Source: Escherichia phage WPEC1
Direction: 5' to 3' (one strand)
Sequence record: PV659873.1
DNA: 64,000 bases
The translations under genes and the position numbers were made by a program. This document shows positions 45,227 to 45,820 of the stretch, one piece after another (the stretch's first letter is position 1; each line of letters begins with the position of its first letter). Under the pieces are notes generated by a model, which saw nothing but the letters and a program-made list of their open reading frames with translations, did no database searches and was not told the origin of the DNA.

Positions 45227-45820
45227 TTACCAAGGAATATCATCTTCTTCCGATCTGGTATCTACTTGAGGTGGACGCGGAACCTTCACTTCTTTAACAA
45301 AACGTAGATATGGGAAACGTGTGGCAATTTTAATAACATGTTTGGCATCTTCTCTAACGTCTTTGTGCAAGAAGCAGATCCCTGTTTCCAAGGTTGTTTC
45401 AAAATCTTTAGAATAATAACAATCCTTCCCATCAAATGCAGCCTGGCAGATGGACAGATCGAACTCATTTAGAAAGGTTGTCATTACGCTTGGTTCCATA
45501 ATCATAAGGTTGCAAAGCTGACCATCACGTTCAAACTCAAAAACGTGTTTAAGACCAGTAACACCTTCATAATTGTCAGAAGCCTCTTTGTTTCCTAGTT
45601 TACGAATATTGGTTCCCATTAAAGCAGATGCAATTAATCCTTGTATTTGTTCTTCAGTCCGATGTGCAGGAAGGGATGTATAGAAATCCAGATCACGTCC
45701 AGCAATATCAAGAATACGCCAATCACGAACAGCACCGCCAGCCAAGACAGAATTAGGATCAGCGATCTTTAATACGGTAAGAATTTCTTTGGCAATATTG
45801 ATTTGTTTTGATTTAGTCAT
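45227..45820 (-). CDS. minimal nucleotidyltransferase, polymerase-beta superfamily (CCA-adding/poly(A) polymerase head-like)
   Basis: LAGGAVRDWRILDIAGRDLDF carries the GGxVRD...D.D head-domain signature. Confidence 0.55.
   Translation of the reverse strand: MTKSKQINIAKEILTVLKIADPNSVLAGGAVRDWRILDIAGRDLDFYTSLPAHRTEEQIQGLIASALMGTNIRKLGNKEASDNYEGVTGLKHVFEFERDGQLCNLMIMEPSVMTTFLNEFDLSICQAAFDGKDCYYSKDFETTLETGICFLHKDVREDAKHVIKIATRFPYLRFVKEVKVPRPPQVDTRSEEDDIPW

Follow-up and report, generated by a model that had tools for sequence, protein, structure and literature searches.

Deletion of Gad2, a 400-aa protein of Bacillus phage SPbetaL7 (ORF_159), leaves the phage sensitive to Gabija; a Gad2 homolog from Brevibacillus laterosporus fully blocks Gabija, a nucleotidyltransferase (NTase) domain is predicted in Gad2 by AlphaFold, and the SPbetaL7 copy is toxic (10.1101/2023.05.01.538930). 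Podophages carry short NTases of their own: Gp22 of Klebsiella phage fHe-Kpn01 (182 aa) is toxic in E. coli and is reported to be nearer true CCA-adding enzymes (HHpred 99.8%) (PMC7291057), and the Autographiviridae short NTase gene adjoins the DNA polymerase gene and is enriched in Pectobacterium phages, with 37 of 46 Pectobacterium podophages carrying it against 60 of more than 500 others (PMC7693777). We analysed a stretch of 64,000 nucleotides from Escherichia phage WPEC1 (sequence record PV659873.1; hereafter the window), which encodes on its minus strand, at 45227..45820, a stand-alone NTase of 197 aa. We tentatively suggest that this protein is an active template-independent NTase that works at the interaction hub of SSB (the protein that binds single-stranded DNA) or at the replisome, possibly in counter-defence.

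The protein contains ...LAGGAVRDWRILDIAGRDLDFYT..., in which GGAVRD forms residues 28-33 and DLD residues 43-45. The original prediction had picked out these motifs in the 197-aa open reading frame (ORF) and read them as a head of the CCA-adding enzyme or poly(A) polymerase type on a protein too short to hold a tRNA-binding body; structure prediction agrees with it on each count. An AlphaFold2 model built from 48 homologs (predicted local distance difference test, pLDDT, 86.8; predicted template modelling score, pTM, 0.80) is weak only at loop 78-81 and in the last ~20 residues. Its best Foldseek matches in the PDB are the CC- and A-adding enzymes of A. aeolicus and the CCA-adding enzyme of T. 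maritima; for the class II matches (3WFS, 3H37, 4WBY and 5HC9) the probability is 1.0, E is ~5e-5, and the template modelling score is 0.56 normalised to the query and 0.28 normalised to the target, with ~190 columns aligned to targets of 415-445 aa. Terminal uridylyl transferases and pol mu/lambda are far weaker matches. As modelled, the NTase is a class II enzyme cut down to its head and the start of its neck, without body or tail.

The predicted active site is intact. Motif A (residues 27-47, AGGAVRDW...DLDFY; 45680..45742, minus strand) comprises the GG nucleotide-binding turn and the metal-binding D43 and D45, and aligns with GGAVRD...DxD of CCA-adding enzymes and PcnB; a family-profile search of PDB sequences matched the CCA enzyme 6IBP in this region. 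A single-sequence search of the same database was discarded, having given only chance matches such as PYL1; the family profile was needed. The Pol-beta superfamily pattern hG[GS] - x9-13 - Dh[DE]h with a third carboxylate is found in G28-G29, D43-L-D45-F and E95 (45536..45538, minus strand), the candidate third catalytic carboxylate, which the model places on strand 90-98, the next-but-one strand. Because E95 is present in the NTase and its close clade, the predicted catalytic triad is complete. Loss of the catalytic Asp residues on alignment, against which the original prediction had cautioned, was not seen: D43 and D45 are invariant, together with G28 and G29, in 198 family representatives. 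The protein would thus be a catalytically competent, Mg2+-dependent, template-independent transferase, and the toxicity on expression of related short NTases and of SPbetaL7 Gad2 suggests a potent activity.

An exhaustive profile search (E <= 1e-10, clustered at 50% identity) returned 1,488 family clusters, nearly all of them stand-alone proteins of 175-220 aa. The family is found mainly in phages of Gram-negatives, and short phage relatives also appear in BFVD. Our conservation table, which covers the 198 representatives, has A27, A30, R32, D33, W34, Y84, F120, K164 and F169 as nearly invariant, with F120 kept in 181/198, C125 in 148/198 and K164 in 191/198, and Tyr or His at position 161 in 190/198. 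We conclude that this short family of ~190-aa proteins is large, phage-restricted and uncharacterised. The gp223 of Vibrio phage ICP1 (L003:4956-5375) is a truncated member of 139 aa (166 bits) that ends just after the FxxSxC motif, without the neck-helix remnant and its invariant Lys, and lies near DNA ligase and phosphoribosyl pyrophosphate synthetase genes. Three metagenomic members (P0090, P0072 and P0073) have N-terminal extensions of 100-210 aa that resemble one or two copies of a small domain, MKxRV..P.H...Q..LF.AGY.W..., with no Pfam match and no likeness to Gad2; no informative domain was found in a scan of the fusion and extension members (P0072, P0073, P0090, P0098, P0194 and others). 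P0090 (400 aa) was rejected as a Gad2, having hits in Vibrio, Aeromonas and Escherichia phages and a different N-terminal extension.

The gene has carried two labels in relatives of the phage, "nucleotidyltransferase" and "putative tRNA nucleotidyl transferase / poly(A) polymerase". Profile alignment of the family to E. coli Cca and PcnB (hhalign, 48% probability) is co-linear with the structural match; it puts EFDLSICQ opposite motif B (RRDLTINA) and ends at E157-D158, in the motif D region. In the motif B counterpart (residues 120-130, FDLSICQAAFD; 45431..45463, minus strand) both Arg of RRDFTINA appear lost: the segment aligned with RRD is E-F-D, F120 stands in place of the second Arg, and D121 is variable. 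The neck-helix remnant (residues 153-170, KDVREDAKHVIKIATRFP; 45311..45364, minus strand) is the probable counterpart of class II motif D (EDPLRVLRVARF); past E157-D158 the pairing of EDAKHVIKIATRF with EDPLRVLRVARF was extended manually by eye, and the model has a helix at residues 160-168. Here the motif D pattern EDxxR becomes EDAKH, with H161 at the position of the templating Arg, and positions 157 and 158 vary across the family. Independently of these alignments, the family has no conserved Arg pair, because only R32, K164 and K/R168 stand out as conserved basic positions. The body and tail domains that bind the tRNA acceptor/T-arm are absent from the 197-aa protein. Li et al. in 2002 and reviews by Betat and Mörl are reported to credit motifs B and D with discriminating ribose and with supplying a template, made of protein, for C and A; with both motifs lost, therefore, neither CCA nor poly(A) specificity can be assumed. 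Judged by its sequence and model, the NTase is probably not a CCA-adding enzyme: it has neither body nor tail, the family lacks RRD and EDxxR, a strong member belongs to a phage devoid of tRNA genes, and members lie in modules of DNA replication or nucleotide metabolism. The tRNA nucleotidyl transferase/poly(A) polymerase label is justified by neither motifs nor context and probably misleads, since it names activities whose determinants the protein lacks.

An RNA 3'-end enzyme that repairs or completes the CCA ends of host or phage tRNAs, or tails RNA, with or without a partner protein, is nevertheless the alternative that survives best, unlikely as we consider it. All characterised enzymes of this fold extend RNA 3' ends, the top structural matches being CC-, A- and CCA-adding; Phapecoctaviruses encode 10-11 tRNAs (PMC7552041); GenBank annotators chose a tRNA-related name; and E157-D158 of the EDxxR-like motif is present in the window protein. 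Set against this are the missing body and tail, the absent Arg of RRD and the family-wide replacement of the templating Arg by His or Tyr. No tRNA gene was found in the window or at any of ten related loci; a family member scoring 212 bits is encoded by Vibrio phage 1.235.O (Zobellviridae), whose 47-kb genome lacks a tRNA gene, and the NTases of the podophage sister family are also common in tRNA-less phages. An RNA-repair module was found at no family member examined, the contexts being DNA replication or nucleotide metabolism, and no RNA ligase or kinase-phosphatase partner adjoins the window NTase or most of the members examined. A weak 80-aa RNA_ligase match ~3.4 kb away on one contig (L007) and a weak RlaP match ~5 kb away on another (L018) are exceptions. 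The repair or tagging of RNA 3' ends offered in the original prediction thus gains no support here. A literature on tRNA-dependent DNA hypermodification and jumbo-phage RNA repair was consulted and set aside as having no bearing on the NTase. Because the tRNA-specific parts are lost and the SSB-like tail, described below, points to single-stranded DNA, the NTase more likely works at replicating DNA than at tRNA.

The relation to Gad2 is the first of two leads. Of 58 NTase homologs, 18 carry a precomputed annotation for the Pfam family PF26128 ("Gad2"); it is solid (E <= 1e-5) on P0016, which is 37% identical by BLASTP, "faint" on P0009 (60% identical) and absent from P0001 (97% identical). It is likewise carried by 120/120 listed homologs of verified Gad2. 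These precomputed annotations were not reproduced by our own Pfam scan, and we substituted hhalign and our own hidden Markov models (HMMs), with the verified Brevibacillus Gad2 sequence taken from Supplementary Table 10 of the preprint. The short NTase family aligned with the single Brevibacillus Gad2 at 69.9% probability and with an alignment of 29 Gad2 proteins at 87.6% probability (E = 3.5e-6, 117 columns), pairing residues 11-149 of the window NTase with residues 16-136 of Gad2. An HMM of the short family scores true members at 166-212 bits; SPbeta-type Gad2, at 28.9 bits, is the best outgroup, ahead of LKD16 ORF16 (18.5), Brevibacillus Gad2 (16.8), PcnB (15.9) and Cca (5.3). In an AlphaFold2 model of Gad2 (pLDDT 79) the N-terminal secondary-structure order is that of the NTase, and the two models have several BFVD neighbours in common. 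Both proteins are phage-encoded; AGG, DxDxY and FDxS/TxC occur in both, as does a conserved Gln/Asn on the strand that follows that of E95. They differ in that Gad2 has GGxITS where the NTase has GGAVRDW and lacks a Glu at the E95 position, and in that the Gad2 homologs retrieved are for the most part from genomes of Bacillota and phages of the Bacillus group, many of them metagenomic. On these profile comparisons, we conclude that the short NTase family and the catalytic domain at the N terminus of Gad2 are sisters, a relation between families only, and that the window protein is not itself a Gad2. This domain of Gad2 is the nearest relative whose function has been studied.

The second lead is the C-terminal tail. 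Residues 176-197 (45230..45295, minus strand) form a linker and an acidic tip, EEDDIPW, that is modelled with low confidence (pLDDT 62 for residues 181-190 and <50 for 192-197) and is probably disordered. E. coli SSB ends in PPMDFDDDIPF, and the NTase tip DDIPW resembles its DDDIPF, the SSB-Ct hub by which SSB touches numerous partners in contacts that are essential (PMC5872125). The window has 584 stop-to-stop segments of >=40 aa, and just two of them end in the pattern acidic-x(0-3)-hydrophobic-Pro-aromatic: the NTase and a 295-aa SSB-like protein encoded nearby (43885..44772, minus strand), which shares its final 11 residues, PPMDFDDDIPF, with E. coli SSB. DDIPW is kept throughout the phAPEC8-like clade, and similar tips (NDFPW, DDIPW, KPIPF, VEIPF and ESIPY) occur in five other family clusters at 50% identity; outside the clade this is 5 of 188, against an expectation of 0.16 when the tails are shuffled, a count of five being reached in 0 of 2,000 shuffles. 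We infer that the tail may recruit the enzyme to the SSB-tip hub. One further ORF with an acidic tail (11708..12793, minus strand; 361 aa, ending DDEELDF) was tried and rejected, being the small subunit of ribonucleotide reductase (RNR) (phrog_86, E = 3e-103); its tail is the usual docking peptide for the large subunit.

In several phage records the SSB-like protein itself bears the annotation "single-stranded DNA-binding protein"; it falls in phrog_4477, labelled "unknown function", SSB PHROGs match only its tail, and its body has no Pfam match. The phage has apparently copied the host SSB interaction tip onto it. The annotated SSB-like ortholog in phi92, gp156 (L002:7026-7973), continues for 16 more residues (APIGLQYGRNFLHCF...) after DFDDDIPF; these may stem from an overlooked stop or a frameshift, or may mask the tip.

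Genomic context places the NTase among replication genes, and phage groups unrelated to one another have family members beside pol A, primase-helicase, SSB or 5'-3' exonuclease genes. The order in the window and in tuntematon is primase/helicase, Dam methyltransferase, DNA pol A, three small ORFs, the NTase, a 130-aa protein and the SSB-like protein, and it is retained around the NTase in phi92 and in two contigs (L010 and L013). The phi92 NTase (gp158) is ~37% identical to that of the window, compared with 56% and 62% for its two syntenic neighbours; by this measure the NTase appears to evolve fastest of the trio of NTase, 130-aa protein and SSB-like protein, as arms-race genes tend to. Elsewhere, the homolog in Vibrio phage 1.235.O overlaps a 5'-3' exonuclease gene at that gene's end, two contigs have the orders RNR - glutaredoxin - NTase - ThyX (L008) and thymidine kinase - 5'-nucleotidase - NTase - RNR (L020), and in the remaining contigs examined the family member stands among small early genes. 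In the sister family, ORF16 of LKD16 lies between helicase and DNA ligase genes, upstream of pol A.

We suggest a mechanism in which a catalytic head and neck stub, free of tRNA- and CCA-specific elements, would transfer nucleotides without a template. The flexible DDIPW tail would dock the NTase onto partners of the SSB tip, be they the replisome of the phage, host proteins that interact with SSB, or SSB itself. At intermediates of phage replication the docked enzyme may then extend 3' ends by nucleotides, whether at DNA ends or nicks or on RNA primers. By analogy with Gad2, its most likely purpose would be to shield replicating phage DNA from defence systems that sense DNA ends or nicks. As a whole, this explanation of an active, template-independent NTase at the SSB hub or replisome, with a possible counter-defence role, strikes us as the best of those considered, and we put it at somewhat below an even chance. 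Its most specific form, in which a minimal class II-type NTase is tethered at the fork by an SSB-tip mimic and tails or caps 3' ends against Gabija-like sensing, is unlikely to hold in every part.

Several points weigh against this explanation. The tip ends in Trp, not Phe, is clade-specific and is absent from phi92 gp158. The mechanism of Gad2 is still listed as unknown in a 2026 review (PMC12904381), and the analogy predicts little because of this. An HMM of the Gad2 N-terminal domain gives P0016 and P0059 27 bits and the window NTase 3.1 bits, so that the link of the window protein to Gad2 is only transitive; moreover the NTase lacks the helical linker and the beta-rich C-terminal ~250 residues of Gad2 (~400 aa). 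The mapping of motifs B and D depends on the 48%-probability alignment to Cca and PcnB, and the position of E95 is acidic in only 131 of the 198 representatives. Members of the family in nucleotide-metabolism modules (RNR, ThyX and thymidine kinase) would also fit a small-molecule product. Finally, the NTase is syntenic and apparently core in the replication block across the subfamily, which is unusual for accessory anti-defence genes.

Two of these points lead to alternatives that we consider doubtful. The NTase may be a small-molecule synthase. Its product, a dinucleotide, polyphosphate or other nucleotide derivative, would serve as a decoy for, or an inhibitor of, a defence that senses nucleotides (GajA, for instance, would be held in the state in which nucleotides inhibit it), or would change the nucleotide pool. 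Two independent members lie inside the nucleotide-metabolism modules described above, the NTase has no nucleic-acid-binding domain, and Cheng et al. in 2021 reportedly found the GajA nuclease to be gated by NTP and dNTP levels. Moreover, another phage NTase family, the MNT-type enzymes of Bacillus phage BCP1 and Escherichia phage Av-05, is reported to make cyclic GMP-AMP (cGAMP) or cyclic di-AMP (c-di-AMP) and thereby to jam a TIR-STING effector. Those enzymes are likewise phage-encoded members of the Pol-beta superfamily, and an anti-defence role is theirs; however, they are 250-410 aa long and carry GS-x-AY[GAN]T-x4-SDxD and, downstream, NP-x-h2[DE], in contrast to GG-AVRDW-x8-RDLD here, so that the decoy-making family is unrelated at the motif level. 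The supplementary files of the paper on STING-jamming NTases, its NTase list among them, yielded no entry for phAPEC8 or phi92, and we rejected the MNT-type family as the identity of the window protein on motif, size and membership list. We know of no class II-type enzyme that produces small-molecule signals, a PADLOC scan gave no match for the NTase, and the SSB-like tail would have no obvious role. The nucleotide-signal-producing transferase of the original prediction therefore lacks support, the decoy-making phage NTases being of that different, MNT-type family.

The other point, the fixed place of the gene, fits a housekeeping accessory of replication with no defence role, a terminal transferase of the replisome that would act on primer or DNA 3' ends or on genome termini; this, too, we hold to be rather improbable. 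The position between DNA polymerase and SSB-like gene is constant in Phapecoctavirus, Justusliebigvirus and related contigs, the tail is SSB-like, and the Autographiviridae sister family sits between helicase and polymerase. However, the sister family is patchily distributed among phages with similar replication machinery (PMC7693777), ICP1 retains only its truncated 139-aa version, and the NTase diverges faster than its neighbours and is homologous to an anti-defence protein. Weakest, and in our view very improbable, is a protein nucleotidylyl transferase that AMPylates or NMPylates a host or phage protein, such as an SSB-tip-binding enzyme, to inactivate it, as MntA does to HepT: Pol-beta-fold NTases include such protein-modifying members (PMC7641770), the tail could bring the NTase to SSB-interacting host proteins and relatives are toxic, but every one of the nearest structural relatives acts on polynucleotide 3' ends, MNT-type proteins are far weaker matches, and no target or partner signature was found.

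The gene proposed here as an SSB-directed NTase is real and previously annotated. Taken from the ORF list, its coding sequence runs from an ATG (45818-45820), which overlaps the stop of an upstream 72-aa ORF (45813..46031) by 8 nt, to a stop codon at 45227-45229, within a tightly packed block of co-oriented genes; a ribosome-binding site, GGAG, read from the sequence, lies 7 nt upstream of the ATG (45828..45831, minus strand). The coding DNA is 100% identical in Escherichia phages WPEC4, WPEC2 and WPEC6, where it is annotated "nucleotidyltransferase"; the surrounding 1.8 kb is 100% identical to these three and 98-99% identical to ~60 other phAPEC8-like phages of the genus Phapecoctavirus, subfamily Stephanstirmvirinae; the window, too, comes from a phAPEC8-like Phapecoctavirus. 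The gene is present in more than 60 sequenced coliphages, and its family is catalogued in PHROGs, with full-length matches to phrog_10174 (E = 6.5e-63) and phrog_1614 (E = 3.5e-11), both labelled nucleotidyltransferase. The Pfam PolyA_pol head (PF01743) scores 13.8 bits, below its cut-off of 23, and an NCBIfam scan gave a single partial match of 12.6 bits, to an actinobacterial CCA model. The isoelectric point, 5.3, is similar to that of the E. coli Cca head, and this analysis was uninformative.

Among the neighbours, the 130-aa protein (44789..45181, minus strand; phrog_16560, unknown function) is syntenic with the NTase across Stephanstirmvirinae and is the one 56% identical to its phi92 counterpart, gp157. 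The family A DNA polymerase (46449..49781, minus strand) lies in the same operon-like block, with the three small ORFs between it and the NTase. It has a clean in-frame insertion of 245 aa (residues 583-827; 47301..48035, minus strand) that is absent from tuntematon, to which its flanks are 99-100% identical. Its first residue is Cys, its end reads ...TGN with a Cys following, and a LAGLIDADG-like FLEGFLIADGY lies within it, an intein signature; a Pfam search of it returned no Hint/intein domain at E <= 0.01. In tuntematon three glycosyltransferase genes adjoin the replication block upstream of the primase/helicase (L001:1-2378); Phapecoctaviruses have a complete dTDP-rhamnose pathway, and DNA glycosylation has been suggested for them (PMC7552041).

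The NTase gene is in itself ordinary; its value is as a lead, through the link to Gad2 and the SSB-like tip. The family connects the well-understood fold of CCA enzymes to Gad2, and a small, soluble relative from an E. coli phage could serve as a model of Gad2 chemistry. An SSB-tip mimic carried on an enzyme suggests how a phage could place a nucleotidyltransferase at single-stranded DNA or the replication fork. Should tailing or capping by a fork-tethered NTase prove true, it would amount to a replisome-associated enzymatic counter-defence and would reveal how Gad2 works, and this reading of the NTase can be tested in easily handled E. coli phages.

Compared with class II tRNA NTases and PcnB, the window protein has the same head fold and secondary-structure order, the same GGxVRD...DxD motif A and later Glu, and what remains of the first helices of the neck, including an EDxxR-like EDAKH; it differs in being half-sized, in having F120 for RRD, in its SSB-like acidic tail and sub-threshold Pfam score, and in belonging to a family that also occurs in tRNA-less phages. 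With the short NTases of podophages and Autographiviridae (fHe-Kpn01 Gp22, ORF16 of Pseudomonas phage LKD16, and those of Pectobacterium phages PP47/Q19) it shares a stand-alone architecture of 180-200 aa, motif positions, a similar structure and a place in the replication block beside helicase, ligase and DNA polymerase, yet these form a separate sequence family, as the low score of LKD16 ORF16 indicates, and the LKD16 protein lacks an SSB-like tip. Like SSB-Ct, the NTase ends in an apparently disordered linker followed by a C-terminal acidic D-D-I-P-aromatic sequence; unlike SSB-Ct, it carries this tip, with a final Trp instead of Phe, on an enzyme and not on an oligonucleotide/oligosaccharide-binding (OB)-fold binder of single-stranded DNA.

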